Position numbers and translations under genes: made by a program
Part shown: positions 313 to 27,506 of the stretch, one piece after another
Layout of the letters: each line of letters starts with the position of its first letter
How positions within the stretch are numbered: position 1 is the first letter of the stretch
Notes under the pieces: generated by a model
Told to the model about the DNA's origin: nothing
The model's input: the letters and a program-made list of their open reading frames with translations, nothing else
The model's database searches: none
From: Acetobacterium paludosum
GTDB lineage: Bacteria > Bacillota > Clostridia > Eubacteriales > Eubacteriaceae
Reading direction: 5' to 3'
NCBI RefSeq assembly: GCF_008086595.1
Contig: NZ_RXYA01000003.1
Coordinates: 82,129-146,128 of the forward strand
Length of the DNA: 64,000 bases

Positions 313-2463
313 TCAAAGCAATTGCCGTTTTGCGTATTTATAAAAATAGGACTTGTTTTTCATCAGTTCCTCGTAGGAGCCTTCTTCAACAATATTTCCT
401 TTTTCAAGAACCAAAATCCGGTCACAATCCAGAATCGTGCTGAGGCGGTGAGCAATGACAAGGCGGGTCGCATCCAGATTTTTCATACTTTCCGAAACAA
501 TCTTCTGGGATCGGTTATCCAGAGCGCTGGTAGCTTCATCAAAAAAGATGATGGCTGGAGTGGCCGCAATAGCTCTGGCAATTAAAAGTTTTTGCCGCTG
601 CCCCCCTGACAGGGTACCTGCGCCTTCGGCCACCATGGTTTTAAGACCCATGGGCATTTCCCTGATTTCCTCATCCATCCCCACCTTTTTAAGCAATTCC
701 CAGACATCGTCTTCAGTTAATTCCTTCTTTGAACCAGCAATGTTGGACAGAATATCCCCTGGAATCAGCTGGCTGTCCTGTAGCACGACCCCCATCTGTT
801 TTCTGATTTCCCGGATATCCACACTTTCCAAATCGTAACCCCCACAGTAAATATTGCCGTTTGTTGGTTTTTCAAAACCGAGAAGCAGCCGTAAAAGTGT
901 TGATTTACCACTCCCCGACGCCCCTATAACGGCTACATATTCACCATGCCGGACCGTAATGGAAACATTGTCCAGTATGGTCGGTCCGCCTTCATAATAG
1001 CAAAATCGCAAGTGCGTGATTTCGATATCTCCCAAGATTTTTCCCGGGGTGGTTTTAAACGAATCCACTTCCGGGACACCATCGATAATGGGCTTTGTAT
1101 TCTCATATTGCGGAATCACACTGTTTACGGCAATCAGGGCCTGAACAAGGCCTAATAGAGATGAAATAAAAACAACAAATGCCGAATTGATGGCGACAAA
1201 ATCCCCAGGTGAAATGCTGTTAATACTCACATAATAATAGATGACACACATGCACAAGGTCGGTAGCGCAATGGTTGACAAACGCAGCAGTGCCGTAAGT
1301 TTTCCTCTTTTATACTCAACTTCCCGCTGCGCCGCATAGTCATTGACCCATTTTAAATAGGCCCGACTTTCGGCACCGGCCACCCGCAGTCGGGAAACTG
1401 AGGTAATCAATTCCAAAACCATTCCTGAAATATCGTTAGTCATTTTAATCGACTTTCGCTGACATTTCATCTGCATTTTTCCAATAATCAACGTGAGGAA
1501 AACGCTGAGAGCAGTTAAACCCATTGCGATAAATCCAATCGTCGCATTAATCGAAAAAATATAAAATCCATTAACAATCGAAAATCCCGTTGTAATGATC
1601 ATCGTGATCACATTGACCGATAGTATCTTTTGAATGGTTGCAAATCCGGTTGCCCGAAGTGCCAGAGCTCCTGATGAATACTGCTTGAAAAAAGAAGCCG
1701 GCAGGGACAGCAGTTTATCAAGCAGAGAATTCTGCAGAATTGACAGCTTACCCTGAATTCTCAGAATACACAAACTTTGAACCATTGTAAACAAGCCCCG
1801 ACTGACTGCAACAGCGACCAGTATAAAACCCACGACCAAAATGGTAATGGACTGATTTTGGGGAATCCAGACGTTAAAGGCCTGTTGCATGGCGATTGAA
1901 GGCAGCAGAGATAAAAGCGCAGCCGCCACCGCTAAAACAATCATCCCGATAAAATCTCTTCTTTGAATCAGCTTCGCTCCCAATTTCACCATTTCCCTAA
2001 AGGATACGGGTTCTTTAGGCAGCGGCGGATAAAAAACATAAGCATCTGAAAGCTCCAAACTTCCATCAACCTCTTTCGCCTCACCCTCGTAAGTCTTGCA
2101 TTTATAACGGGTTGGCGAGGACGGTATCAGCGCTACTGCCACTCCTTCTTTGGTGAATGCCAAAATGGGTCCGTTGTCCTTTTTGTACCAGTCATCTTTC
2201 AGTTCCACTAGCCGATAGCGAAAACCAGATTCTTCGGCAATCAATTTGAACTGGTTCTCACCGCTGTACAGCTTTCTGAGCGGCGGAATCTTCACCGCGA
2301 TTCCCATGGCTTCAGCAACTTTAACAACAGCGGAAATCAGGGGATTGTCTTCCAGTGTGACAGATGGCGTTTTTTTCGGGGATAATACTTTGTCAAATGC
2401 TTTTTTGGCACTTTTTTCGTATTTTTCCTTTAACTGTCTCATTTCTTCTAATTTCTTTGCCAT
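313..2463 (-). CDS. Bacteriocin/RiPP export ABC transporter, permease + ATPase; the N-terminal ~160 aa form a peptidase-like domain with no obvious catalytic Cys (NHLP/Nif11-type second exporter subunit)
   Basis: 716 aa; 6 TM region then an NBD with Walker A GASGSGKST, ABC signature LSGGQRQ and Walker B IIFFDEATSALD; no stop-to-start gap with the upstream PCAT gene. Confidence 0.8.
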   Translation of the reverse strand: MAKKLEEMRQLKEKYEKSAKKAFDKVLSPKKTPSVTLEDNPLISAVVKVAEAMGIAVKIPPLRKLYSGENQFKLIAEESGFRYRLVELKDDWYKKDNGPILAFTKEGVAVALIPSSPTRYKCKTYEGEAKEVDGSLELSDAYVFYPPLPKEPVSFREMVKLGAKLIQRRDFIGMIVLAVAAALLSLLPSIAMQQAFNVWIPQNQSITILVVGFILVAVAVSRGLFTMVQSLCILRIQGKLSILQNSLLDKLLSLPASFFKQYSSGALALRATGFATIQKILSVNVITMIITTGFSIVNGFYIFSINATIGFIAMGLTALSVFLTLIIGKMQMKCQRKSIKMTNDISGMVLELITSVSRLRVAGAESRAYLKWVNDYAAQREVEYKRGKLTALLRLSTIALPTLCMCVIYYYVSINSISPGDFVAINSAFVVFISSLLGLVQALIAVNSVIPQYENTKPIIDGVPEVDSFKTTPGKILGDIEITHLRFCYYEGGPTILDNVSITVRHGEYVAVIGASGSGKSTLLRLLLGFEKPTNGNIYCGGYDLESVDIREIRKQMGVVLQDSQLIPGDILSNIAGSKKELTEDDVWELLKKVGMDEEIREMPMGLKTMVAEGAGTLSGGQRQKLLIARAIAATPAIIFFDEATSALDNRSQKIVSESMKNLDATRLVIAHRLSTILDCDRILVLEKGNIVEEGSYEELMKNKSYFYKYAKRQLL

Positions 2464-2466
2464 GGT

Positions 2467-4668
2467 CTATCCCTCGGTTCTAATGAGATTTGCATACTCA
2501 CCGCCCAGTGTCAGCAGTTCGTCATGGGTTCCTCTTTCCGCCACTTCTCCGCCGCTTAAAACAATGATTTCATCACAATCGCGAATCGTTGACAATCGAT
2601 GTGCCACCAGAATGGTGCTGATTCCTCTTTTATTAATATTCTCACTAACCTGGGCTTCCGTTGCTGTATCCAGGGCGCTGGTGGCTTCATCCATAATCAA
2701 TATCCGCGGATTTTTGCACAATGCCCGGGCAATCTCAAGCCGCTGCCGCTGCCCGCCGCTCAAGTTTTTCCCCCCTTCGCTTAAAACATATTCAAAGGCA
2801 TTGGGCAGTGCCAGAATATCTTCATAAATACAGGCATCTTTTGTGGCCTGTATCACATCCGCTACTGGAATGGTTTCATCCCACATGGTGATATTATCCA
2901 AAACCGTCGCCGAATACATCACGATTTCCTGATCTACGGAACTCATGGTGTTATATCTCAGCTCTGCGGGAATATCTTTTATGTTAATGCCATCAATGAG
3001 TATTTCCCCGCTCCACGGTTGATAGAGAGTAGTAATGGTTTTTGCAATCGTTGATTTTCCGCTGCCGGATGACCCCACTAAAGCAATAGAGCCCCCTGCT
3101 TTTAGTTTTAAATTTAGGTCTTTGATGATGGGTTTTGATAAACGGTTATAACCAAAAGTCATATTTATTAGCTCAATCTCCCCATCCAGCTGATCGCAGT
3201 CAAAGCCGTCCAGAGAAATCTTTTCCGTTTCCAGCGCAATATCTTCCGGATATTTTTCAACATCATCTAGCCGTTGAATGTCAGCGATCATCCCCTGTAA
3301 CGCGGCGCTGGTGCTGACCAGTTCACTCATCGGCTGAGTAAATCCTGCCATCAGGGTGTTAAATGCGACAAATGTACCGATGGTCATGGTTCCCATTAAA
3401 ACAAATTCACCCCCAAACATAAATATCAAAGCTGTCAGGATGCTTGTCAGCAGGGTTGGCAGTACCGAGATAATGGCTTCCATCCCCCCCATGCGCTGTT
3501 CCACCGCCAGGGTTTCGGCGCTGAGTCCGGCAATCCGCGTGAAGAAATTGTCTTCCTCGCCAATCGATTTAATCGTTTCAATTGATTTCAGATTCACCAT
3601 GATCCAGCCAATGGATTTTCCCTGATACTGGAGCAGTACCCGGTTGTTGTCCGCATTTTTTTTAGCCGTATACTGGAGCAGCACGATATTAACGGCAGTA
3701 ATGATGATACCGATTAAAGTTAACGGAACATTATATTGAAATAAAAGGATTAAATATAGCCCCGCGGTGACTAGATTAACCAGTATCCGTGCTAAATTGC
3801 TGGATAAAGCTGTTGCAATCGTATTGATGCTCTGCATTCGGCTGTTGATATCACCGGATTGCCGCTGGTTAAAAAACTCCACCGGAAGTCTCAGCACATG
3901 ACGCAGATAGTCTCCGGCACTGTTGATGGCGATATAGTTTTCCATTCGCGCCAAAGCATTTTCTTTTAACCAGTTGAGAATCGCCTGGAGGATCACCGTA
4001 TACAATAAAATACCAAGAAAAATCGAAATATCAAACTGCTCCGAGTTGCTTAAATAATAGTCCACAAATATTTTCGCATAATTTGCAATCACCAACCCCG
4101 GAATAACCAATAAAACCCCAATAATTAAAACATAGATCAATGGCGAAACACCGCTTTGCGAAAGCCTTTTAAACAGTGCTTTCGATACAACCGGTTTTTC
4201 TCCAGCCTTAGTGAATTCTTCGCCCGGACGTGATTCGATGACCACCCCCGTAAACATTTTTTCCAGTTCTTCCTGGGAAACCACCCGCTTTCCTGAGGCC
4301 GGGTCGCATAAATAGACCTTATCGTTTTTAAATCCTTCCAAAACAACAAAGTGGCTGTAGTCCCAGTGAATAATCAATGGCATTTCCATATCCTTTAATT
4401 TATCCACCGTACATACAAATCCCTGGGCCTCTAAGCCATAAAGCCGGGCCGTTCTGGCAATGTTTCCGGCTTTTACACCGTCTCTGGAAACACCACAATC
4501 AATACGCAGCGTTTCCAACGTTTCATATCTACCATAATAGGCTAAAATCATGGAAAGAGATGCCACCCCGCATTCGACAGCCTCCATTTGCAGTACTACC
4601 GGCACTTTCGCTACTTTAGGCAGTTTTTGTTTCTCATCCCGACTTTTCTTGTGTTCTTGATTCGTCAT
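2467..4668 (-). CDS. Peptidase-containing ABC transporter (PCAT; C39 peptidase + permease + ATPase), LagD/SunT/CvaB-like
   Basis: 733 aa; N-terminal C39 motif with catalytic Cys (QMEAVECGVASLSMIL) and the later His/Asp region (HWDYSHFVVL); TM domain; NBD with GSSGSGKST, LSGGQRQR, ILIMDEATSALD. Confidence 0.85.
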   Translation of the reverse strand: MTNQEHKKSRDEKQKLPKVAKVPVVLQMEAVECGVASLSMILAYYGRYETLETLRIDCGVSRDGVKAGNIARTARLYGLEAQGFVCTVDKLKDMEMPLIIHWDYSHFVVLEGFKNDKVYLCDPASGKRVVSQEELEKMFTGVVIESRPGEEFTKAGEKPVVSKALFKRLSQSGVSPLIYVLIIGVLLVIPGLVIANYAKIFVDYYLSNSEQFDISIFLGILLYTVILQAILNWLKENALARMENYIAINSAGDYLRHVLRLPVEFFNQRQSGDINSRMQSINTIATALSSNLARILVNLVTAGLYLILLFQYNVPLTLIGIIITAVNIVLLQYTAKKNADNNRVLLQYQGKSIGWIMVNLKSIETIKSIGEEDNFFTRIAGLSAETLAVEQRMGGMEAIISVLPTLLTSILTALIFMFGGEFVLMGTMTIGTFVAFNTLMAGFTQPMSELVSTSAALQGMIADIQRLDDVEKYPEDIALETEKISLDGFDCDQLDGEIELINMTFGYNRLSKPIIKDLNLKLKAGGSIALVGSSGSGKSTIAKTITTLYQPWSGEILIDGINIKDIPAELRYNTMSSVDQEIVMYSATVLDNITMWDETIPVADVIQATKDACIYEDILALPNAFEYVLSEGGKNLSGGQRQRLEIARALCKNPRILIMDEATSALDTATEAQVSENINKRGISTILVAHRLSTIRDCDEIIVLSGGEVAERGTHDELLTLGGEYANLIRTEG

Positions 4669-4685: not shown

Positions 4686-5510
4686 CTAGGAGATAATCAA
4701 ATTAATCAGATAATATTTATCTGTGAAAATGGTGGTTTGACAGGATGTTCCTATTTTTATTTGTCCATTAAAACCATTGTTGTCTTTTGTCCATATATAA
4801 GTTCCTTTATCATCAACCTTCGGATCGATAATAATTTTCATTTGAAGAGGATTCTGAACATCTTCAGTCACCTTGTTAATTTGAACATTTCGAACAACCC
4901 CTTTTAAATATCCATATTCGGCAGTAGGCGCTGTTTCAAGTGCGATATAAACCGCATCTCCCGACTGAATGGTCTGAGCCGCTTCATAAGTGGAATAGGC
5001 AATAATGACCGATGGGGTGTTTTCACCTTCTGTTTTTTCAATCTGGCAGAAAGCCGCGTTTTTTTGCAGCGTTTCGCCTTCCTGATAGTTAAGTTCTTCA
5101 ACAACGCCACTTTCCGTTGCATAAATCATGGTTTGACGTTTGACTTTGCTTTTTTCTTCGTCCGTCAACCCAATCCCTGTGGAAAATTCAGATCCCAGAC
5201 TCTCCATTGTAACCACACCCAGCAAATCCCCTTTATTGACATAATCGCCTTCGGAAACAGTAATTTCTGTCAAAACGCCTTCATTTTGACCCACTACTTC
5301 AACCGCACCTTCTCCATAGGCTATTGTTGCAGCCATGGTTGTTGTGATTTTTATGGGTACGGTGACTGAAAAAATAACCACGCCGATTAAAAAAATCAGA
5401 ATTCCCAATAAAATGAGCAAATTTTTAGGACCGATAACCGTCATTAATGCCGCCTGCTCATTTTTCTTTGTGCTTTTATCTTCTTTTTTTTGAAAGATGG
5501 ATTTACTCAC
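4686..5510 (-). CDS. HlyD-family secretion (membrane-fusion-like) protein, short form
   Basis: 274 aa; single N-terminal TM helix, then a biotin-lipoyl-like beta hybrid segment (ITVSEGDYVNKGDLLGVV); lies between the PCAT and the rest of the operon and overlaps the upstream gene by 8 nt. Confidence 0.6.
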   Translation of the reverse strand: MSKSIFQKKEDKSTKKNEQAALMTVIGPKNLLILLGILIFLIGVVIFSVTVPIKITTTMAATIAYGEGAVEVVGQNEGVLTEITVSEGDYVNKGDLLGVVTMESLGSEFSTGIGLTDEEKSKVKRQTMIYATESGVVEELNYQEGETLQKNAAFCQIEKTEGENTPSVIIAYSTYEAAQTIQSGDAVYIALETAPTAEYGYLKGVVRNVQINKVTEDVQNPLQMKIIIDPKVDDKGTYIWTKDNNGFNGQIKIGTSCQTTIFTDKYYLINLIIS

Positions 5511-6645
5511 TGCTTTGTCCTCCCACAGTCGGCTTGTTGTTTTTCACCAATTGATTTCCGACATAGGTCTTTTGGAATACCGGAATACTACTGACAAGCC
5601 GTTTATCGAAGCTTACGGTACCATAAAGAGTATCAAAACTGTTATCTGCCAAAACTTTTTTTATCTCTTCCACATCAAGACTTTGGGCCTTATTGGCGAC
5701 ATCTGCCGCTAGATGCAAAGCAAAATAGGCCTGGGCTGCCGGTAAATCAGGGTCTGTCCCAAAAGCACTTTTGTAAGCCTTTATGAAATCAGCCTGAGGA
5801 CCTGCTTGAGCGTTATTGTCGAAATAACTGGTCACCTGAATCAGTTTTTTCATGTTTTGGGGAATCGTAACGGGTTGAATTTCAATATCATAACTGAGAT
5901 AAATCGGTCGGGTATTTCCGGTTTTATCCAAATCATCAAAAAGGGTTGTAATGTCATCCCCAACACAGGCAGACACAATGGCCTGTGCCCCGAGGCTATC
6001 CCATTTTTTTACATAATATCTGAAATAATCAAGATTTGGCAGATAGGAAACGGCATCCACAATTTCAATTCCTGCCGCCGTGGCATATTCTTCGAAACTC
6101 TGCATATAATCTTTTCCATAGGTATTGCCGGGACTATGAACAAACACTACCTTGCTGATCCCCTGGACCACCAAACTCTGAACCATCTCGTTGGCCATGG
6201 AATTTTCTGAAGGAGCACAAAGATAGGCCCCCTCATTTCCCGAAAGATTTATTTTCGAAGTGGCGATTATGGGTGAAAAAAGGATCTTATTATTCCGCTG
6301 ATAAATACTGGCCACTTTCAGCACATCATCAGTGCTTCGATGACCGATCACAATGGGAAAGTCATCATTTCCCGCCACCATTGTGGCCACTTCAACAGCC
6401 GTATTAGTGTTATCTCCGTCATTAACATAATTTACTTCAATATTTCTATTCAGGATACCTCCCTGTTCATTGATTTCAATGGCTGCCAGCTTCAGGCCGT
6501 TGGCAAATGTCGCCCCGTAATCTTCAGAAAATGGATAAATGGCATCCACTGACAGGGTCCCGGTGTCCGACGTTTTACCGGTACAGCCGCAGCAGATCAT
6601 CCCACATATTAGCATAGCTGATAGTATCATTAGATATTTTTTCAT
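5503..6645 (-). CDS. Lipoprotein, periplasmic-binding-protein type I fold (Leu/Ile/Val-binding / ANF-receptor-like substrate-binding protein)
   Basis: 380 aa; signal peptide with lipobox (LICGMICCGC); type I periplasmic binding protein fold along its length; embedded in the RiPP operon. Confidence 0.65.
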   Translation of the reverse strand: MKKYLMILSAMLICGMICCGCTGKTSDTGTLSVDAIYPFSEDYGATFANGLKLAAIEINEQGGILNRNIEVNYVNDGDNTNTAVEVATMVAGNDDFPIVIGHRSTDDVLKVASIYQRNNKILFSPIIATSKINLSGNEGAYLCAPSENSMANEMVQSLVVQGISKVVFVHSPGNTYGKDYMQSFEEYATAAGIEIVDAVSYLPNLDYFRYYVKKWDSLGAQAIVSACVGDDITTLFDDLDKTGNTRPIYLSYDIEIQPVTIPQNMKKLIQVTSYFDNNAQAGPQADFIKAYKSAFGTDPDLPAAQAYFALHLAADVANKAQSLDVEEIKKVLADNSFDTLYGTVSFDKRLVSSIPVFQKTYVGNQLVKNNKPTVGGQSSE

Positions 6646-6654
6646 AACGCTCTC

Positions 6655-8358
6655 CTAAATAAACTCAGAAAATAGAATCAGATAATGGTCACTCATTTTC
6701 GTCAACAACTTATTCATGTTCTCGGAAGACAGCTTCAGTTTGTCTGACAGCTCTTTTACTGAAAGTCTTCCCGCATACTTTAGCATGTCTAGCTCGATCT
6801 GATTCATAGCCTTTATATCCAGCATTGAAAAAGCGGGGATTTTTTGAATGATCCAGTTGTCTTTTTCTGCTTTACTTAATTCATACCATTCTTTTAAAAG
6901 GCCATCATATTCAATGAGTTTTGAATAGTAACGAAACATCACTATATTTTTAGCATAGATATATTTAAAGTATCCTCCTGCAATGCCATATTTCAGAGCC
7001 AGTTGAAAGTCCTGCTTGATTCGTTCTTTTGGAATAAGCCCTTTTTCAAACTGTTCCTTCATTCTTTGGGAAATTTTTGTAATAAAACGGGAACGACCCA
7101 TGCAGACTTCTGGCAACGAAAGTCCCCATGTATGATTTACCGGAAAATCCTCAAAGGATGTGATATAGTCACGGTCTTCCAGCACAATCTGAAAATCTTC
7201 GGGATGATTATAAATTTTGGTTCCCGGCAGCGGCATGATAAAGGTGGTGGATAAATCCAGGAGTCCCGGTGCCAAACTCAAAAGTTTCAAAACTGCTTTT
7301 GTTGTCTCTCTAAGGGTTTCTTCTGTCTCCAAAGCTCCGCCAATGATATAATTTCCGGTTAACTGGGGCAGTCCTTCTTCATAACAGATTTCCACCACTT
7401 TTTTGATATCCTCCGGTTTTGCTTGTTTGCCATAGGCCTTCAGCACTTCTTCCACTCCCGATTCCATGCCGATCTGCATGCGAACCATGCCTGAGTCGAT
7501 CATCTCCCGGATCAGTCCCGGATGCTTCACCAGAAATCCGGGATGCCCTTCGCAAAACCATACAAAATCATGTTTTTTTCGAAGCTCTCTTAATCCAGCC
7601 AGGAGTAACTTCAACCTATCCGGATCTGTCGTCAGAGTATCATCAGTAAAAAACAGATACCGTGGCCTGTGACTGTTTGACAAGCGTTGTTCGATTTCTT
7701 CTAACACATCCTCGACGGGACGCATTCTCAATTTTTTTGAATTGCCCCCTTCAAAACAGAAAGCGCAGCGGTAGGGACAGCCTCTGGCTGTAATCACCGA
7801 TAGCAGCGGCCTTTCCCGATAATCCAAGACATCCTCATGACAAGGCAATTGGTACGTTGAAAAATCATTTATCTGAACATAATCGGCATTTTCACCCGTT
7901 CTTATTTCTCCCGGAACCGCCGTTTCGCTACCTGTGATTTTTCCGGTTAGCCACTCGATCAGGGTTTCTTCGCCTTCTCCTTTTATGATGGCATCCGCCT
8001 GGTAAACATCCAAATCTGTTGCTGTCATATGGCGGGTATGAGGGCCTCCCAGAACAACATAAAAGTCATAGCGGCTCTTCAGGTATTTAATCATCGACGC
8101 CACCGCCGATTGATTGTCAAAATCACAGTAAAAACAGACTGCAAAGAGATTATCTTTCATTTTTTCAATGGTTTTCACCGTGTCGGTGGTAATCCCGGTA
8201 TAGGCGTTCGCATCAAAACCATGGGCATTCAGTTGGGCCGCCAGGGTTAAAATCCCCAGATTTTCAATCATTTCAAAGGTCCGACCTCTGACCATTCGCT
8301 GGGTATAGATGAGCAAAACTTTGGGTTTTTCTTTTATGGTTGCCGATATAAAATCCAC
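6655..8358 (-). CDS. Cobalamin (B12)-binding radical SAM enzyme (class B rSAM) with a C-terminal RRE-like extension
   Basis: 567 aa; N-terminal B12-binding Rossmann-like domain; rSAM motif GCPYRCAFCFEG (CxxxCxxC); C-terminal ~190-aa extension shared with the paralogs. Confidence 0.85.
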   Translation of the reverse strand: MDFISATIKEKPKVLLIYTQRMVRGRTFEMIENLGILTLAAQLNAHGFDANAYTGITTDTVKTIEKMKDNLFAVCFYCDFDNQSAVASMIKYLKSRYDFYVVLGGPHTRHMTATDLDVYQADAIIKGEGEETLIEWLTGKITGSETAVPGEIRTGENADYVQINDFSTYQLPCHEDVLDYRERPLLSVITARGCPYRCAFCFEGGNSKKLRMRPVEDVLEEIEQRLSNSHRPRYLFFTDDTLTTDPDRLKLLLAGLRELRKKHDFVWFCEGHPGFLVKHPGLIREMIDSGMVRMQIGMESGVEEVLKAYGKQAKPEDIKKVVEICYEEGLPQLTGNYIIGGALETEETLRETTKAVLKLLSLAPGLLDLSTTFIMPLPGTKIYNHPEDFQIVLEDRDYITSFEDFPVNHTWGLSLPEVCMGRSRFITKISQRMKEQFEKGLIPKERIKQDFQLALKYGIAGGYFKYIYAKNIVMFRYYSKLIEYDGLLKEWYELSKAEKDNWIIQKIPAFSMLDIKAMNQIELDMLKYAGRLSVKELSDKLKLSSENMNKLLTKMSDHYLILFSEFI

Positions 8359-10085
8359 TTATTTCCCTCCATTTTATTTAGGGATCGCTCTGCTTCCGCA
8401 TAGAAATTAAGATTCTGCTCCTGAGGATCGAGATTCTTTCTGCCCTGCTGAAGCACTTCTTTTTTTGAAAGCTTTCCGTTGCACAGCTTCAAGAGCGTAT
8501 AGTCTGTTTCATCCAAAGTCTTGTCAAAAATTTTTGGTTTTTCTCCGCTGACATCCGTGTACAGCCATAATTCAAAAGTTCGATGAATAATCGCCTCTTG
8601 TTCAGCTTTTCCCAATTGATCATTTAAAACATACTCATCCGAAGCGCGCATTTTCCAGTAGGCATCATCAATGGGAATATTTTTATAGACATAATCATTC
8701 CAGCGGGTAAAAACCCCGTATTCCCGACCCAATCGGTAGGAATCCAGAATCACTGCTTCCGGAATTTTTCCGTCAAAATAAATTTTGCGCATTTCATTCT
8801 GGAGGCGCTTATTAGCCTGCAACCGAATATTTGTCAGATCAGTAAAATCCAGCTCTGCTGTTCTGGAAAGCGGAATATCTTCGTTGCAGCAATCAATCAG
8901 ATCTTCATAAATTTCCATGCCAAATTTCTCCGGGTTAAGGGTAATCGGCGTTTTGGGATAGGGTAGAAATGAAAAATAAGCGGTTTCGAATTGCCCCGGG
9001 GCATCGTAGAGAAGTTCCATAATCAAGTCTTCAGATTCTTGAATGGTTTCCCGGGTTTCATGGGGACCGCCGATAATAATATTACCGGAAATGCCATGAA
9101 TACCCGATTCAACGCAATGATTAATCACATTCACTGCCATTTTTCGGGTGATTTTTTTGTTGTAACTTTTTAAGACCTGATCACTTCCGGATTCCAGACC
9201 AAAAAAGATCTTCTTTAGACCGGCATCCGCCAGATTCTTCGCCATATCGCGATGCTTGTCGATGGTTGAAATATGAGCGCTGGCAAACCACACAAAGTCA
9301 TAGTCTGCTCTGATTTTTTTTATTTCATCGCAAATCTGATTCACCCGTTTATTATCTAAGGTAAAGGTATCATCCAGAAAATTAATGTAGTTAATAGCCG
9401 GATTACGCTCAAAATTCCCCCGAATTTCCTTCATCAATGAAGGAACCGAGTGACGACGCACCCGCTTGGCATTGGCCCCTTCATAACAGAAGGTACACCC
9501 AAAGGGACAGCCCCGTCCGGTTAAGATGGGCAGCAGTCCGTAATATTTATAGTCGTTGGTCAGGGTGATATCCGGCCAGGGAATATCGTCCAGGTCTTCT
9601 GGCGGCTTTCTAGGCTCGGTTTCCACCAATTTTCCTTCTTCATCCCGAAAAATAATCCCCCGGATGTCTTTCAGCGCTCCTTTTTGCGCGATAAAAAAAT
9701 CCATTAATTCCAGAATGGTTTCTTCACCCTCGCCAATACAAGCGGCTTCGATGGATGCTTCTTTTAAAAATCCGGCATCCATCCCCGCCGTCTGAGGCCC
9801 TCCCGCCAATAAAGAAACTTCTGGAAAAAGCTTCTTCACTTCTTTAGCAAAAATTGTCACCCAGTGAATGTTGTTGAAGTCGCAGTAAAAGCCAATGATT
9901 TTGGGTTTGTCTTCTTTTTCCATCAATTCTTTGACGTAATTCATGGCTTCTTTGGCATAGCCCTGAAACATCTGGACCTCATAGCCTTTATTCGTTAATA
10001 ATTGGGTCAATATATTCATTCCCAGGTTGCTCCCGGGAATATAACCGCTGACATAGCGATGTGATTTGATCAATAATAGTTCCAT
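8334..10085 (-). CDS. Cobalamin (B12)-binding radical SAM enzyme (class B rSAM) with a C-terminal RRE-like extension
   Basis: 583 aa; rSAM motif GCPFGCTFCYEG; B12-binding N-terminal domain; overlaps the downstream gene by 25 nt (translational coupling). Confidence 0.85.
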   Translation of the reverse strand: MELLLIKSHRYVSGYIPGSNLGMNILTQLLTNKGYEVQMFQGYAKEAMNYVKELMEKEDKPKIIGFYCDFNNIHWVTIFAKEVKKLFPEVSLLAGGPQTAGMDAGFLKEASIEAACIGEGEETILELMDFFIAQKGALKDIRGIIFRDEEGKLVETEPRKPPEDLDDIPWPDITLTNDYKYYGLLPILTGRGCPFGCTFCYEGANAKRVRRHSVPSLMKEIRGNFERNPAINYINFLDDTFTLDNKRVNQICDEIKKIRADYDFVWFASAHISTIDKHRDMAKNLADAGLKKIFFGLESGSDQVLKSYNKKITRKMAVNVINHCVESGIHGISGNIIIGGPHETRETIQESEDLIMELLYDAPGQFETAYFSFLPYPKTPITLNPEKFGMEIYEDLIDCCNEDIPLSRTAELDFTDLTNIRLQANKRLQNEMRKIYFDGKIPEAVILDSYRLGREYGVFTRWNDYVYKNIPIDDAYWKMRASDEYVLNDQLGKAEQEAIIHRTFELWLYTDVSGEKPKIFDKTLDETDYTLLKLCNGKLSKKEVLQQGRKNLDPQEQNLNFYAEAERSLNKMEGNKWILYRQP

Positions 10086-10161
10086 CTTCCACCTATCCCC
10101 CTTGAACTGCCGACTGCAACTTTCTCAGTCAGTACTTCGAAGGGGAAAATCCCCTTCTTTT

Positions 10162-10437
10162 TTATGACATTCTTGTTGTTTGGGTTGCTGTAAATGCGTA
10201 ATCTACACCTACAATACTTAAACCGCCGGCAGCCTGATCCAATTGATCATCACTAATTGGTTGTTTTTCTTTTGCTTCTTTAAAAGCAGCCTTAAATTCG
10301 TCTGCTTTTACGGTGTAACCCAATTTTGCAACAATCGCATCAAATTCTGCTTCTGTTTTAGCATCATTAATTTGTTTTGCCAAGGCCTCATCTGTTAATA
10401 CTTTTGCGGCTAATGCTCTTGCACCATCAATACTCAT
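10162..10437 (-). CDS. RiPP precursor peptide with a Nif11-type leader and double-glycine cleavage motif; predicted core LSIVGVDYAFTATQTTRMS
   Basis: The ORF-track protein begins with a TTG-coded Met; the ATG at 10437 has a strong RBS (AAGGAGGAATAATATG). The 92-aa product has the Nif11-domain pattern (amphipathic helices; ...KQPISDDQLDQAAGG) ending in GG before a 19-aa Thr/Val-rich C-terminus. It sits between B12-rSAM genes, upstream of a C39-PCAT. Confidence 0.8.
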   Translation of the reverse strand: MSIDGARALAAKVLTDEALAKQINDAKTEAEFDAIVAKLGYTVKADEFKAAFKEAKEKQPISDDQLDQAAGGLSIVGVDYAFTATQTTRMS

Positions 10438-10465
10438 ATTATTCCTCCTTTCCAAAGTATTTTGG

Positions 10466-12193
10466 CTAAATCGTAAAATGAGTCAGCCAATATTTAAAAT
10501 TAAATTGATATAAAATATCAACAAATTTTCCATGAAATTCCATCTCATTTTTATAGGCGGTTCCAAACTTTGAATAAAGTTCGGTTTTAATGTCTCCCAG
10601 GCTTCTTTTTCCGGCACAGCGTAAAATCAGCTCATACTCCAAAGGCGAAAGAGCCATGCCATCTAATATGGGAAACCCCTGGGTGAATGTCATCGTGCGC
10701 CATAATTCAAAAGTTCTTTGGGGATAATCTCTGAAGAAATCCAGTGATTCTTCAAAAGCTTGTCCTTCATTTAAATAAAGCACATAGTAGTATTCATAGG
10801 TTCTTGGATTGGCGTAAATTTCCTCAAACCATCGGCTTCTGATTCCATAGGTCAGCGCGGCTTTAAACTGTTTCATCACTACTGCTTCTTCTAGCTCATG
10901 GTTTTTTATTTTTTTTTGCATACTTTGTCTGATGACCTTATTTAATTCCTGTCGGTCTTTCATCACCTGGTCCTGACTTCGCTCTCTCTGGGTCACAAAA
11001 GGGTAGTCATCACCGCAAAGGCAGCCCTCTTCATCATGTAGCTGTAAATTGAATTTTTCAGGATTTTCAAGTATCTGTGTTCCCGGATAGGCTCTTAAAA
11101 ATCCGGTGATGATGTCAATCACACCCGGGGCCTGATTCGTCAGCGTTTCGATAAGTTTTGCAGTGGATCCGACTTTCTCTTCAGGTCCTCCCACAATAAA
11201 GTTGGTGGCAATCTGGGTGAGACCAGTATCTGCAGCATAAGTAACAAATTCAATGATGTCCGAAACCTTTACATGCTTATTATATTGATCAATGACCCTC
11301 TGATCCCCGGACTCAATCCCAATTTGAAGACGGATGAGTCCAGCCTCGATCATGGTTGGGAGGATATCCATCCAATCTTTTATTCGACCCACATGGCATT
11401 CACAATACCAGACAACATCACGTTTTTTTCTGATTTCCTTCATGCCTTCGCAGAATTCTTCAATTCGCTGTCGGTTAATGGTAAAGGTATCATCCATGAT
11501 AATAATATAGTTTAAATCGGGATTGTTTTTTAAATTAAGTCGGATTTCTTCCAGCACCAACGGCATGCTTCTGAGCCGAACTTTCTGTTTTCCGGGACTG
11601 GGAGCACAGTAGGCGCATTGATAGGGACAGCCTCGGCCGGTAAAAATCAACTTGCCGTAGGCATGATTTTTATGGAGGGAACAATGATAGGCCGGTAACG
11701 GCAGACTATCCAGATCTTCAATGATTTCAGGCGGCTCTGTTTCAACAAAAATGTCATCTTTGATCGTGGCCAATCCTTTGATACTGCTTAAATCACCCTG
11801 GAGCTTTAAAATAGCATCTAAAAGTTTAGGCAACGATACTTCAACTTCACCTCTTAAAATATAGTCCACGTTACTTTTTTCCAAAAAATCTTTTTTTAGC
11901 CCAATACTTTGGGGACCTCCAACAATGATGGGAATGTTCCACTTATCTTTTATCTTTTTTGCCAGTTCGGCAATCAATTGAACATTGTCAAAGTCACAGG
12001 AAAAGCCCACTGTATCTGGCTCGTTTTTTTCCATCTCATCCATTAGTTTTTCAGGGTCACCATGAAAAACCAGTGGTTCAAATCCTTCTCTTTCCAGAAC
12101 CCCGGCCAAATAAAACAACCCAACATAATCATGAGCGTTTGTTTCGTATTTTTTTGATACATTACAAAGGAGTATCTTCATTTTCTTACCCAT
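10466..12193 (-). CDS. Cobalamin (B12)-binding radical SAM enzyme (class B rSAM) with a C-terminal RRE-like extension
   Basis: 575 aa; rSAM motif GCPYQCAYCAP; B12-binding N-terminal domain; C-terminal motif LSPLEYELILRCAGKRSLGDI. Confidence 0.85.
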   Translation of the reverse strand: MGKKMKILLCNVSKKYETNAHDYVGLFYLAGVLEREGFEPLVFHGDPEKLMDEMEKNEPDTVGFSCDFDNVQLIAELAKKIKDKWNIPIIVGGPQSIGLKKDFLEKSNVDYILRGEVEVSLPKLLDAILKLQGDLSSIKGLATIKDDIFVETEPPEIIEDLDSLPLPAYHCSLHKNHAYGKLIFTGRGCPYQCAYCAPSPGKQKVRLRSMPLVLEEIRLNLKNNPDLNYIIIMDDTFTINRQRIEEFCEGMKEIRKKRDVVWYCECHVGRIKDWMDILPTMIEAGLIRLQIGIESGDQRVIDQYNKHVKVSDIIEFVTYAADTGLTQIATNFIVGGPEEKVGSTAKLIETLTNQAPGVIDIITGFLRAYPGTQILENPEKFNLQLHDEEGCLCGDDYPFVTQRERSQDQVMKDRQELNKVIRQSMQKKIKNHELEEAVVMKQFKAALTYGIRSRWFEEIYANPRTYEYYYVLYLNEGQAFEESLDFFRDYPQRTFELWRTMTFTQGFPILDGMALSPLEYELILRCAGKRSLGDIKTELYSKFGTAYKNEMEFHGKFVDILYQFNFKYWLTHFTI

Positions 12194-12196
12194 TTT

Positions 12197-15100
12197 CTAA
12201 AACGGAACAACAAGAAGCCAATATTTTTTATCAAAAACTTTCAACGTTTCAATTAGTCGTTCCATAAATTCATCAAAATTTTCTCCAAATGGTTTTCCAA
12301 ATCGGTCATAGAATATTTCAGCAACGGTTTTAATGGTACTTTTGCCGGTACAGTATTTCATCACTTCATATTCAAACGGAGAGAGTGCTTCTCCCCACAA
12401 AACCGGGTAGCCCTCGGAAAAATCAACATCCCGCCACATTTCAATCATCCGTTGCGGCCGCCAATTGGGCAATTCCACCGGGTTCACATCGACAATCCGA
12501 CTGGCGGATTCTCTGGCTAACATGGTATAGTAGGCCGTCAGGGTTGGCTTATGATGCGAAATGATATTAATCCAGTATTTGGGGCCTCTGGCTCCCATGG
12601 CTTTTTTATAGCATCTTAAAATATCCTCATGCTTTAAGTCCCCGTCGTTAAGCATGACTTTTACTTCATCCACAAAACTTTGCAGATATTCCTGATACGC
12701 TCCCATAATTTCCCGGCGATCCATCGTTTCACTGTCCATAATCGGATAATCAGAAATACTGCCTAAACCCTGTTCATCATAGATGGTTAACCCATATTTT
12801 TCAGGATGCAGACCAATATCGGTCATGGGATAGGGCATCACAATACTGGGGGCAATTTCCATCATCCCCGGGCCCAGCCGCAGCAGCTTGGCACCAAAAG
12901 CCTTATTTTTCTCAATGTGTTCACGGTTTTCAAAAGGGCCGCCAACCAGCAGGGCTCCAAAAACCTGTTGAACCCCGGCATCATAGGCTGCTTTAACAAC
13001 CGTTTCGACCATTTCTGGAGATATATTTTTTCGGTATATCTTCAGCATGTCCTTATCCACTGACTCAATGCCGATTTGAAGACGGTTGAGACCAGCATCG
13101 ACCATGACTTCTAACACTTCCGGCCGTCTGCTTAAAGATACTACATCGGCTTCACAATAGAACTGAAAGGGTTTAATCGCTTGAAGGGCCTTTGCCTCCC
13201 GGCAGAAATCATCCAGCCATTTGGGATTGGTGACCAGCGTGTCATCACAAAAGTTAAAATAATTGAGTTCCGGGTATTTAAGCAGAAAATGACGCATTTC
13301 GGCAATGACGTTTGCCACGCTCCGCTGACGCATGGGCCGTTTCAAGGCTCCTTCATGGCAGAAAACGCAGTGGTACGGGCATCCCCGGCTGCTCATCAGA
13401 TAAAGACTGGAGTAATCGATGGGAGTCATGCTTTTATCATAGGCCGGAAATGGCAGATCATCGAGGTTCTCAATAACCGGGCCTTCCCCCCGGTCGATGC
13501 ATTCGTTTTTCTCATTGATATAGAAAATTCCAGGAATGTCATCCAGGTTTTTGTTTTCTTTCAAGGCATCCAGAACCCGGACCATCGCCAGTTCCCCCTC
13601 GCCCCGAACGATGGCGCATGCCTTTGACTGTCTGAGATAATCTTCATTCAGAGAAATAGCTTCAGGGCCGCCGACAAGCACGGGAATGTTAAAGGTTTCG
13701 GTAATGGTCGCACTTACCTTTTTAGCCACATGTTTGTTTTCAAAATCAACCGAAAAACCAATCCCACAGACTTCCTCCCGATTAAATTTTTTCAGAAAAT
13801 CGATGGTCTGATCCGGCCGGCATTCGCATACCGTGGCATCATACCCTTTTGAATCAAGATAGCTTGCCAATCCATAGATCCCCAGGAAAGCTCCATTTCT
13901 GCTGAAGCCGGCAATTTCCATCCCGATGGTTGATAATTTAAAAAGGATGACCTTGTTTTTCACTTTACTTTCCACTGTTTTCTCCTGTTTCACCCATTCT
14001 TTATCTTCGTCTTTGGCTTTTAGAGATCCTGATAACACACACATGCCCACGGATTCCAGTTTTTTGATGGTCTCCAGGAGATAGCATTTAAATTCATGAA
14101 GGTCTCCAAAATTCTGTTCATGTTTTTTAAAGAGTAGTTCTGCCATTTCATTAATGGTTAGCTTGCCTGAGGTATAGGTTAGCACCTCAAATTCAAACGG
14201 CGAATAGACAAATCCGTTTAAAATCGGAATTTCTTCCGCCAGCTCTGGTGTCAGGGAAAGCAGCGCGATCCGCTGGGGATGGGTCTCAAAAACTGTTTCC
14301 GTGTCATAGTCTTTAATGAGCTTATCGCCCCGAATCCGGGCCTTATACTGGGCATCGAAATAGGGATATCGGGAATAAACCAGTCCCTGCCACATCCCAC
14401 TGAGGCTGTATTTTTCACTGAGTGCATAGCTCTCCAGAATCACCTCATCCGGAATCTCACCATCCCTGAGCATTTTTTGCATGAGCTTAATATTCTCTTC
14501 AAAAAACTCATTTCTGGCGGCACAGATTTCCTCGATACTCAGGGTTTCGGTTTCAATCACCGGGAAATCACCCACTGATGTCAGCGCCGCCTCATCTTTC
14601 ACAAAAATCCCAAAAGCCTCAGGATTTTTAGACATGGCGGTTTCCGGGAAAGGCATATAAAAGGTGCTGACCACCTCCACCATCCCCCGACCGGCTCTGA
14701 TCATTTCATTGACTGTGTTGAATGTATAATCCAGGGTTTCCCGGGTCTCCAGAGCTCCTCCGATGATGATATTACCAACCAGCTGGGGCAGCCCCGCTTT
14801 CTTACAGATCTCAACGACTTCGAAAAGACCTTCCCGTTTGATCTTTTTGTTGTAAATATCGATGATATGCTGATTGCAGCTTTCAATACCGATTTGCATC
14901 CGGACCAGGCCGGCCTCGACCATCATTTTCACAATTTCCGGATATTTAATAACAATATTCACATGGGCATCGGCAAACCAGACAAAATCGTGTTCTTTTC
15001 GCAGCTCTTTGAGTTGTTCACAAAAATCTTTGACCCGTTCCTTATCCAGGGTGAAGGTATCATCTCCGAAAAAGATGTATTTCACATTGGGATTCTGGGC

Positions 15101-15787
15101 CAAACGACAGCGGATTTCTTTCATCACATTTTCCACACTGCGGCGCCTGACATTTTTACTGTTCGCACCCTCATAACAAAAAGAGCAGTGGAAAGGACAC
15201 CCTCGTCCTGACATGACTGCCATATGATTAATTCCCTGATGCTGGGAGGATTTAATTTTACCGGTAATAATCGGTAGTTCGTCTAAATTCTCGATAGCCG
15301 GATAAATACCATTGTCATAATAGGTTCCGTCTTTTCTGAATGAACACATTCCTGGAATCTTTTCCCAATTTTCTTCATCTTCGTTTTCAATGTTTCTGAT
15401 GATCTCGTAGAGAGAATACTCCCCTTCTCCTCTGGCAATGCCGTCTGCCCGACTGGTTCTTAAAAAGCCTTCACCTAAGCCAACTGTCTGGGGGCCGCCG
15501 ATAAAAACATAGGCGCCATATCGCTTTTTAATCTCCTGTGAAAAGCTTTCAATTGCCGACTGATTCTCATAATCGCAATACAAAGCCACTACTGTATTTA
15601 CATCACAACCATCAGTTTTGAGAAATTCCAGGCCTTTTAACAGTTCTCCAGAAAATACGGCAACTTCAATACCTTTGCTGGCCATCATTTCAGCTAATGA
15701 CATATGGCCAATGGGCTCAATTTGAGTGATTGAATGGGTTCGCGTTCCTCTATGAATAAGCATCAGCTTCAGATTAATCGTTTTCAA
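12197..15787 (-). CDS. Fused tandem double cobalamin-binding radical SAM enzyme (two complete B12-rSAM modules in one 1196-aa polypeptide)
   Basis: Two separate CxxxCxxC motifs (GCPFHCSFCYEG in the N-terminal half, GCPYHCVFCHEG in the C-terminal half), each preceded by a B12-binding-like domain and followed by an RRE-like segment (LSPFEFEVLTYTSGK... and LSPFEYEVMKYCTGK...). Confidence 0.85.
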   Translation of the reverse strand: MKTINLKLMLIHRGTRTHSITQIEPIGHMSLAEMMASKGIEVAVFSGELLKGLEFLKTDGCDVNTVVALYCDYENQSAIESFSQEIKKRYGAYVFIGGPQTVGLGEGFLRTSRADGIARGEGEYSLYEIIRNIENEDEENWEKIPGMCSFRKDGTYYDNGIYPAIENLDELPIITGKIKSSQHQGINHMAVMSGRGCPFHCSFCYEGANSKNVRRRSVENVMKEIRCRLAQNPNVKYIFFGDDTFTLDKERVKDFCEQLKELRKEHDFVWFADAHVNIVIKYPEIVKMMVEAGLVRMQIGIESCNQHIIDIYNKKIKREGLFEVVEICKKAGLPQLVGNIIIGGALETRETLDYTFNTVNEMIRAGRGMVEVVSTFYMPFPETAMSKNPEAFGIFVKDEAALTSVGDFPVIETETLSIEEICAARNEFFEENIKLMQKMLRDGEIPDEVILESYALSEKYSLSGMWQGLVYSRYPYFDAQYKARIRGDKLIKDYDTETVFETHPQRIALLSLTPELAEEIPILNGFVYSPFEFEVLTYTSGKLTINEMAELLFKKHEQNFGDLHEFKCYLLETIKKLESVGMCVLSGSLKAKDEDKEWVKQEKTVESKVKNKVILFKLSTIGMEIAGFSRNGAFLGIYGLASYLDSKGYDATVCECRPDQTIDFLKKFNREEVCGIGFSVDFENKHVAKKVSATITETFNIPVLVGGPEAISLNEDYLRQSKACAIVRGEGELAMVRVLDALKENKNLDDIPGIFYINEKNECIDRGEGPVIENLDDLPFPAYDKSMTPIDYSSLYLMSSRGCPYHCVFCHEGALKRPMRQRSVANVIAEMRHFLLKYPELNYFNFCDDTLVTNPKWLDDFCREAKALQAIKPFQFYCEADVVSLSRRPEVLEVMVDAGLNRLQIGIESVDKDMLKIYRKNISPEMVETVVKAAYDAGVQQVFGALLVGGPFENREHIEKNKAFGAKLLRLGPGMMEIAPSIVMPYPMTDIGLHPEKYGLTIYDEQGLGSISDYPIMDSETMDRREIMGAYQEYLQSFVDEVKVMLNDGDLKHEDILRCYKKAMGARGPKYWINIISHHKPTLTAYYTMLARESASRIVDVNPVELPNWRPQRMIEMWRDVDFSEGYPVLWGEALSPFEYEVMKYCTGKSTIKTVAEIFYDRFGKPFGENFDEFMERLIETLKVFDKKYWLLVVPF

Positions 15788-15934
15788 TATTTGCCTCCCA
15801 ATTGTATTTTTTGTTTTCAGTACTCCCTATATCGATATAATTTTTTTAAATTTTCATTTTAATATTTTTTTCATTTTATTCTATTTTGTTCACTTTGTCT
15901 ATCGTTTATTTGTTAACTTTTCATGCCTATCTTA

Positions 15935-19672: not shown

Positions 19673-20509
<837 letters not shown>

Positions 20510-25610: not shown

Positions 25611-26213
25611 ATGGATATAGCAGTTCTTGTTAATGCTTCGGGAAAATCATCTGTATTCAATGAAAATGGTATCATTAAAGTTTATTCAAAAAATACGCAA
25701 GGCTGGAATTTGACTAGAGAAAAAGTCTACTCCATCGACCACTTAGAAAACGGAAATGGTTTAAGAGATTATATGAATGAAATTGGTCTCTGGTTGAATA
25801 GTTGCAAGGTTCTCGTTGTTAAACGAATCCGCGGCATTCATTATCTGGCTCTTGAACATTTCCAAATATCAATGTTAGAAATCGAAGGCTATCCTGAAGA
25901 GTTTTTAGAATATATCCAGGATTGTGAGAAACACCAGCGCACTGAGGAAAAAGTTCCTTTAGAAGCAATTGCTATTTTCGAACAACATCCTGGTTATTTT
26001 TACATTGATTTACAAGACGTCATGTCTGGAAAGACATCGTATAATTCCAAACAAATATTACTGCCATTTTTTAAAGAAAAAGCATTCACTCAACTTGAGA
26101 TTGTTTGCGCACATATTCCAAAATGGTTTGAAAAGGAGCTTCCTCTTTTAGGTTTAAAATATAATAGCGGTGAATCCGGTCGTTGCCTAAAGGTCCAAGT
26201 CTCTAAAGTTTAA
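25611..26213 (+). CDS. anf-operon accessory protein (possibly AnfO-like); function unknown
   Basis: ATG at 25611 preceded by GGGAGG; 200 aa; last co-oriented gene after anfK, where anfO/anfR-type genes sit in other anf operons. I did not recognise the sequence itself. Confidence 0.35.
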   Translation: MDIAVLVNASGKSSVFNENGIIKVYSKNTQGWNLTREKVYSIDHLENGNGLRDYMNEIGLWLNSCKVLVVKRIRGIHYLALEHFQISMLEIEGYPEEFLEYIQDCEKHQRTEEKVPLEAIAIFEQHPGYFYIDLQDVMSGKTSYNSKQILLPFFKEKAFTQLEIVCAHIPKWFEKELPLLGLKYNSGESGRCLKVQVSKV

Positions 26214-26586
26214 TATATAGAAAACTAATTATGCTTATAATATTTATTATTATAAAATACCTCCAGTTAACGGGATTAGTTCAAGATCAATCATGCATTC
26301 GATACATATCTTTGCGATTTGTATATGTATTGAATGAAAATCTCCGAGCTAATCCATTTATTTTTTTTGTTCACAGTTCTCATAATTACAAGCCACATAA
26401 ATACATAAATAATTATTGGAAAATACCTCCGATTGTATTTTATTATCAGAGTTTTAATTTCAACAAGTTTTTTCACATAAAAAAAGTGCACCTTCAAACG
26501 TCCGGTTTTCATCTAACATTTGGGGTGCGCTTTTTTATCTGGTTATTTTATCCCTTTTTTCTTTTCAAAAATCCTAAATTTTAAAA

Positions 26587-26796
26587 TTAATCAACCATCA
26601 ACATTACAGAGGTTGCTTTGATTACTGCTGTTGCATCAGAACCGACGGTTAGACCTAATTCTTTAATTGATGCCAATGAAATAGTAGATGAAACAATATT
26701 TCCATTTCCAATATCAATTTTTACAATACCGTTCACAGCGCCTTCTTCAATACTGACAACTTTGCCTTTTAGTTGATTTCTTGCACTTAGTTTCAT
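26587..26796 (-). CDS. mop: Molbindin (single TOBE/Mop domain molybdate-binding protein)
   Basis: 69 aa from the ATG with RBS CAGGAGG; MKLSARNQLKGKV...DIGNG...SSTISLASIKELGLTVGSDATAVIKATSVM fits the Mop/TOBE domain. Confidence 0.75.
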   Translation of the reverse strand: MKLSARNQLKGKVVSIEEGAVNGIVKIDIGNGNIVSSTISLASIKELGLTVGSDATAVIKATSVMLMVD

Positions 26797-27506
26797 AATA
26801 GCCTCCTGATTTAAATTTAATAAGACAATCATTCAGATTATCTTTTGTTATTTATATTGAAACATATTAAACTTAATAATTCCTTAATTTTTTCTTCTTT
26901 TTTCTTTTAATATCTATCTTTGTTCTCAAGCAAATGGCTTTTTAAAGCTATTTATTGAATTTCTTCTATTGTTTAAAATTCAATAACCATTCAGATTATC
27001 CGTATTTTTTATTTTCAATGATTGTTTCATTTTGATCATTTTAATATCTTTTAACTGCGTTTCACTATGATTGATTGCAATTGGTTATATCTAACTATGT
27101 TTAATTAGGTTAAGTTTGTTTTAAAAATTCTGATTTTGTATCGAGACAAGCATCCACATTACAAATAATCTTAATGCCAATGAAAAATGTTATTGAGTTC
27201 TATTTTTGTGATTTTTATTTAACTTACTATTGTATATTTCATCCAGATCAATTAAACTATATAGAAAGCGTTTATCTTTTGTTTTTGTTGAGTTATGACT
27301 TACCATTTTATAAAAGATGGCGCTCTTTTTTATTTTAATAATCATCATTTTCTGTCCAACAACATCGTGTAATAAACAATTCAATTCTAAAAACGAGAAA
27401 ATCACAAATTCTGTATTTTAAAAAAAAATTCCAGGATTTATCTGAATCATAAGTAAAAGCAAACGAATTTTCAACTAACTAAAACGATTAGACGAGGAGA
27501 TATCCT

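Follow-up and report, generated by a model that had tools for sequence, protein, structure and literature searches.

The stretch of DNA considered here (the window) is 64 kb long and comes from Acetobacterium paludosum (NZ_RXYA01000003.1 of assembly GCF_008086595.1, forward-strand positions 82,129-146,128). Its region 6655-15787 encodes on the minus strand four cobalamin (B12)-binding radical S-adenosylmethionine (rSAM) proteins, which amount to five modules as one of the proteins is double, and which are arranged around the gene for a Nif11-leader precursor peptide. A preliminary description of the region had proposed that all four proteins share a C-terminal motif resembling the PqqD type of recognition element (RRE) found in pathways that make ribosomally synthesized, post-translationally modified peptides (RiPPs). 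Structure prediction supports the view that each of the five modules ends in a winged-helix domain of ~90 residues with the RRE (PqqD-like) fold.

Protein A (567 aa, 6655-8358) has a CPYRCAFC motif and protein B (583 aa, 8334-10085) a CPFGCTFC motif. Both are matched by the Pfam B12-binding and Radical_SAM families, as is protein C (575 aa, 10466-12193), which is 100% identical to an Acetobacterium paludosum protein and whose nearest solved folds are MgmA, AprD4, TokK, CysS and TsrM. Protein D (1196 aa, 12197-15787) contains two B12-binding and two Radical_SAM stretches and two CxxxCxxC motifs; its modules are referred to as D1 and D2. PF02310 and PF04055 were found in all five modules together with an intact CxxxCxxC, the architecture of class B radical SAM enzymes. 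The Pfam Radical_SAM match stops at about residue 350 and the barrel of the model at about residue 385, with ~190 aa remaining; the positions of the four open reading frames (ORFs) and the long extension after each barrel had been described correctly.

The precursor is encoded by a 97-aa ORF (10162-10455, minus strand) that is matched above cutoff by PF07862 (E 1.4e-10) and TIGR03798 (E 3.2e-11). These genes belong to a minus-strand operon that runs from ~15.8 kb down to 0.3 kb of the window in the order D, C, Nif11 ORF, B, A, a Peripla_BP_6 protein, an HlyD-like protein, a C39-peptidase ABC exporter (2467-4668; Pfam Peptidase_C39, ABC_membrane and ABC_tran) and a second ABC exporter. No PoyD-type radical SAM epimerase was found among the operon genes, the four B12-binding genes being the sole rSAM genes, and the remaining genes of the operon region are for transporters and a solute-binding protein or are neighbours of unrelated function.

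A C-terminal domain in the rSAM modules

A hidden Markov model (HMM) of the domain was derived from 113 aligned full-length homologues of C, cut to their last ~100 residues; it comprises 47 homologues and no window sequences and was run against 800 ORFs from the six frames of the window and of four related loci. The strongest match in the window was the domain of C (residues 484-575, 10469-10744; 123 bits, E 1.6e-37), followed by that of D2 (residues 1099-1196, 12200-12493; 94.9 bits, E 1e-28), which contains LSPFEYEVMKYCTGK, and that of D1 (residues 492-582, 14042-14314; 56.4 bits, E 1e-16), which contains YSPFEFEVLTYTSGK and leads through a linker into the second module. The domain of B (residues 501-583, 8337-8585; 28.5 bits, E 5e-8) is divergent and contains LDETDYTLLKLCNGK. 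All four lie on the minus strand and no other ORF of the window was matched. Across all six translated frames of the window, a loose regular expression for the motif finds these four sites only. The block strings quoted in the preliminary description are present with the exception of the one for D1, which reads YSPFEFEV... rather than LSPFEFEV....

Module A was not matched by the HMM, even after one iteration, because the region is shortened in A proteins of the Acetobacterium type. Its orthologues comprise Acetobacterium-type proteins (550-573 aa) with the shorter region and remoter members of the clade (581-592 aa) with the full block, the latter scoring 47-72 bits. When 30 A-type C-termini were aligned and compared with the family profile, hhalign gave 98.2% (E 3.5e-14), and 94.1% (E 1.2e-7) with a profile purged of window sequences. 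The stretch in A (residues 490-567, 6658-6891, minus strand) was detected by hhalign only, with a weak Pfam match to MarR/HTH_24 at residues 523-561, and is best described as a shortened RRE-like domain or winged-helix remnant. Module A carries a cut-down version of the domain, in which canonical binding may have been lost. The claim of a motif common to all four proteins thus stands for three proteins, or four modules, by HMM, whereas A joins them as a shortened relative by profile-profile comparison only.

Predicted fold and relation to known recognition elements

The AlphaFold2 model of residues 478-575 of C, made with a 52-sequence alignment, has a predicted local distance difference test (pLDDT) score of 94.3 and the order beta-beta-beta-alpha1-alpha2-alpha3-beta (strands 12-16, 25-27 and 30-33, a bridge at 36-37, helices 40-48, 55-69 and 73-89, and a last strand at 93-97). 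The same elements recur in the model of full-length C (pLDDT 92.8; predicted template-modelling score, pTM, 0.89), where they follow a helical linker of ~100 residues behind the rSAM barrel. RREs are winged helices of about 80-90 aa in which three helices accompany an antiparallel sheet of three strands, and the predicted domain has these features. Fold comparison values were highest for TigE and MibB (both 7.9), MadB (7.8) and TfuB1 and TbiB1 (both 7.7), followed by NisB (7.2), the RRE of PbtF (7.1), PqqD 5sxy (6.9, with 87 of 94 residues aligned), ThcOx (6.8), MccB (6.7), TbtB (6.6), LynD (6.5), TglI (6.3) and PqqD 3g2b (5.9). TfuB1, TbiB1, PqqD, TbtB and MadB also appear in the weak Foldseek list obtained with the domain model against the PDB.

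The sequence-level link to RREs appears weak but specific. PF05402, the PqqD family, is the sole Pfam family matched by more than one member of the 52-sequence domain alignment; it is matched by five, with a best E of 0.003, all under the 23.4-bit cutoff. The reading as a PqqD-type RRE is supported at the level of the predicted fold; in sequence the matches to PF05402 stay below threshold. Searching 1.84 billion representative proteins with the family profile returned only 75 (clusters at 50% identity) at E<=0.001. In full-length carriers (~580 or ~1200 aa) the domain ends at the C-terminus and most other matches are shorter and fragment-like. An N-terminal match was seen in P0188 alone, an rSAM-SPASM maturase of 484 aa (residues 35-92, E 7e-4). 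The rSAM core of P0188 starts from residue ~131, which aligns to residue ~107-111 of SkfB and AlbA, so the matched stretch sits at the position of their N-terminal RRE (PMC8326336).

Set against the known PqqD-like RREs (PqqD; the lasso B1 proteins TfuB1 and TbiB1; the RRE of PbtF; those embedded in NisB, MibB, LynD and TigE), the window domain falls under every curated sequence threshold, has an extra C-terminal strand with a conserved Y-W end and stands at the C-terminus of a B12-rSAM protein. Proteusin epimerases of the PoyD/OspD type likewise act as radical SAM enzymes on a long leader of the NHLP/Nif11 type and carry a C-terminal RRE (PMC8326336, PMC7470986), but they epimerise and, unlike the window enzymes, are without a B12 domain. 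ApyD of the aminopyruvatide pathway (NF050148) is, like the window modules, a B12-rSAM protein; it is a peptide C-methyltransferase described with an RRE (PMC11117315). The ApyD HMM matched the B12 and rSAM part of the window modules (E 1e-13 to 1e-58, profile positions ~67-390 of 645), with scores far under the 750-bit family cutoff and no detectable likeness at the C-terminus; ApyD has a short precursor as substrate and works together with an MNIO and a P450, whereas the window has a Nif11 leader. The PoyB/PoyC-type model (TIGR03975, rSAM_ocin_1) gave partial matches, all under its cutoff of 281.85 bits, that stop near profile position 454 of 606. The best neighbours of the full-length model are the solved class B enzymes MgmA, AprD4, TokK, CysS, TsrM and OxsB (E 5e-20 to 1e-17), with alignments of at most ~440-540 columns and TMq of 0.5-0.6; MgmA and AprD4 (417-454 aa) are too short for the last ~90 residues. 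That an RRE can be fused to a radical SAM RiPP enzyme is already established, also for RREs at the C-terminus and for B12-rSAM enzymes. What the window domain adds is a divergent RRE subfamily, reached by PF05402 below threshold only and covered by no NCBIfam model.

Related clusters and their precursor peptides

In conservation the domain is roughly level with the B12 domain and ahead of the helical linker that precedes it. Among close orthologues identity to C is 74% in the domain, 72% in the B12 domain and 77% in the linker; among distant homologues the figures are 33-37%, 36-42% and 22-29%. Near-invariant positions are P-x-R in strand 1, S-P-x-E from the last part of strand 3 into the beginning of helix 1, G-K past helix 1 and a W in the last strand.

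The survey took in four loci (L001-L004) whose homologues of C are distant (34-48% identity), namely those of Heliomicrobium undosum, a Wallbacteria metagenome-assembled genome (MAG), a Clostridia MAG and a further assembly (L004). As in the window, a single Nif11 precursor is surrounded in each of them by five or six B12-rSAM modules, and all modules of these four loci match the domain HMM except the A-type orthologue in L004. An RRE-like domain is thus encoded beside a precursor in the window and in L001-L004, as in RiPP clusters. The preliminary description had named occurrence of the domain in rSAM proteins outside peptide contexts as evidence that would count against it, and no such protein was found. 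P0301, a 26%-identical B12-rSAM protein from a locus without a called Nif11 gene, was considered as a counterexample and set aside, having no match to the domain HMM.

Departures from the usual arrangement were also seen. A 371-aa protein in L003 (15823-16938, minus strand), encoded between full B12-rSAM genes, has an RRE-like domain (113 bits) and no B12-binding or Radical_SAM Pfam match. In L002 (19664-21811, minus strand) and in the database proteins P0125, P0296 and P0297 (872-882 aa) two RRE-like domains lie just ~215 residues apart, which implies a much shortened module between the two. The double B12-rSAM-RRE fusion of ~1200 aa seen in the window (12197-15787, minus strand) recurs in L004 (6441-9989) and in P0126 and P0130.

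Alignment with the four orthologous precursors indicates that translation of the window precursor probably starts at an ATG at 10437, seven codons into the listed ORF. The orthologues are encoded at 11809-12078 (L001), 15647-15925 (L002), 11808-12119 (L003) and 11785-12057 (L004). The window precursor comprises a Nif11 leader of 72 aa and a core of 19 aa, LSIVGVDYAFTATQTTRMS; its C-terminal part reads ...ISDDQLDQAAGG followed by LSIVGVDYAFTATQTTRMS, with the predicted cut at ...DQAAGG before the core. With 43.3 bits for TIGR03798 (cutoff 32.3) and AAGG ahead of the core, the leader is of the proteusin type. The Nif11 helical domain and a core motif, G-L-S/T-x-V-G-V/I-D-Y/F-A-F, were common to the aligned precursors of all five clusters. 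Directly before AAGG the window leader has ISDDQL; at the same place LxxxxL is found in two of the four other clusters and is absent in two. No mention of the core motif or of the cluster family was found in the searchable literature, and the five clusters look like an uncharacterised RiPP family.

Proposed role of the domain

The reading preferred here is that the domain docks the leader, with presentation of the core to the enzyme and later export, a reading that as a whole is given a probability of about 0.6. In a first step the C-terminal domain of each module would dock the Nif11 leader (72 aa) of the one precursor. The likeliest contact would be the hydrophobic-x4-Leu segment before GG (ISDDQL in the window), added as a strand against beta-3 and alpha-3. 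Known RREs bind the leader as an extra strand beside beta-3 and alpha-3 (PMC8326336, PMC11117315), and in the case of the cyclodehydratase MprC a folded NHLP leader uses an LxxxxL motif close to its cleavage site to contact the RRE (PMC12455567, PMC10858898). The predicted fold, the weak but specific sequence link, the conservation, the setting beside Nif11 precursors, the neutral to acidic charge and the precedents of the proteusin epimerases and ApyD also speak for this reading. In a second step the 19-aa core would be held near the [4Fe-4S]/cobalamin active site, so that each paralogue could modify its own core position. C-methylation would be the likeliest reaction, because the nearest families are MgmA, TokK, CysS, TsrM, the PoyB/C type and ApyD. 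The window modules reached no NCBIfam equivalog cutoff by which a class B methyl-transfer function could be assigned, and AprD4 and BchE are class B radical SAM enzymes with chemistry other than methyl transfer. In a third step the C39 ABC exporter is predicted to cleave after the GG of the leader and to export the product.

Several observations count against docking of the leader by the domain. The hydrophobic-x4-Leu segment is not kept in all five clusters, the precursor of L001 having VSGDGP. Module A lacks part of the beta-sheet, with a deletion of ~10 aa in the N-terminal hairpin and another of ~11 aa between helices 2 and 3. Foldseek with the domain model gave no match in the PDB at E<=0.001, Pfam and NCBIfam scans gave no match of a window module to PqqD (PF05402) or an RRE model at E<=1, and PDB sequences searched with a profile yielded chance matches only and no RRE. 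Precedent also cuts the other way, in that the proteusin epimerase OspD carries an RRE yet processes substrates leader-free (PMC10858898) and the leader of SuiB sits outside its RRE (PMC8326336).

The precedents of OspD and SuiB also favour the main rival explanation, namely that the RRE fold has been kept and leader recognition lost, the domain now being a structural cap or an interface among the five or six paralogues while the substrate is seen through its core or by the catalytic domains. The very strong conservation of the core across phyla fits this, since recognition could run through the core itself, and so do module A, which is conserved with an intact rSAM motif in spite of its truncated domain, and the pTM of the full-length model, which is consistent with a domain packed at a fixed position on the enzyme. 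Against it, the most conserved parts of the domain are P-x-R in beta-1 and LSPLE/GK from the end of beta-3 through alpha-1, part of which borders the beta-3/alpha-3 leader site of known RREs (PMC8326336), and all five clusters have kept the Nif11 domain of the leader, which would not be expected of a leader without a role. Loss of leader recognition is on balance considered unlikely.

An improbable variant is that the domain is closest to the winged helix of protein lysine methyltransferases (Pfam PKMT_2nd) and grips the folded Nif11 helices instead of a linear strand. The resemblance to these enzymes and to Rv2067c would be compatible with a grip on a folded Nif11 domain, but identity to those matches is 10-15% and PKMT_2nd was matched by one of the 52 alignment members against five for PqqD. 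A role as an ordinary DNA-binding winged helix, through which the enzymes would regulate their own operon, is scarcely credible and was rejected on charge (the domains, with isoelectric points of 4.7-8.0, are neutral to acidic, unlike typical DNA binders), on the ranking of the matches and on context.

Docking of the leader by the domain, if correct, would offer a handle on how otherwise unannotated B12-rSAM enzymes find their substrate, with the bounds of the domain defined and the 72-aa Nif11 leader as its predicted partner. As a marker the family HMM is specific to the cluster family, matching only ~75 sequence clusters among the 1.84 billion proteins. The clusters are found in acetogens and other anaerobes, and the combination of many paralogous B12-rSAM enzymes with one conserved short core is of greater interest than the annotation of the domain, which is useful but unsurprising. 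It is suggested, tentatively and as less likely than not, that they represent an undescribed RiPP class, in which a short phylum-spanning core would pass in a set order through five or six paralogous B12-rSAM modules, each having an RRE of its own for the one Nif11 leader, and in which the degraded RRE of A would mark a leader-independent or partner-dependent step.

Some further features of the window may be recorded. The Peripla_BP_6 gene of the operon (5503-6645, minus strand) encodes a solute-binding, lipoprotein-like protein of the Leu/Ile/Val type, here found in a RiPP operon. The second ABC exporter (313-2463, minus strand), present besides the C39 ABC exporter, has no recognisable C39 peptidase domain. 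Past the neighbours of the operon a plus-strand block opens with a gene for a NifH-like ATPase (19685-20509), and near 26-28 kb (26001-28000) the GC content falls to 0.30.

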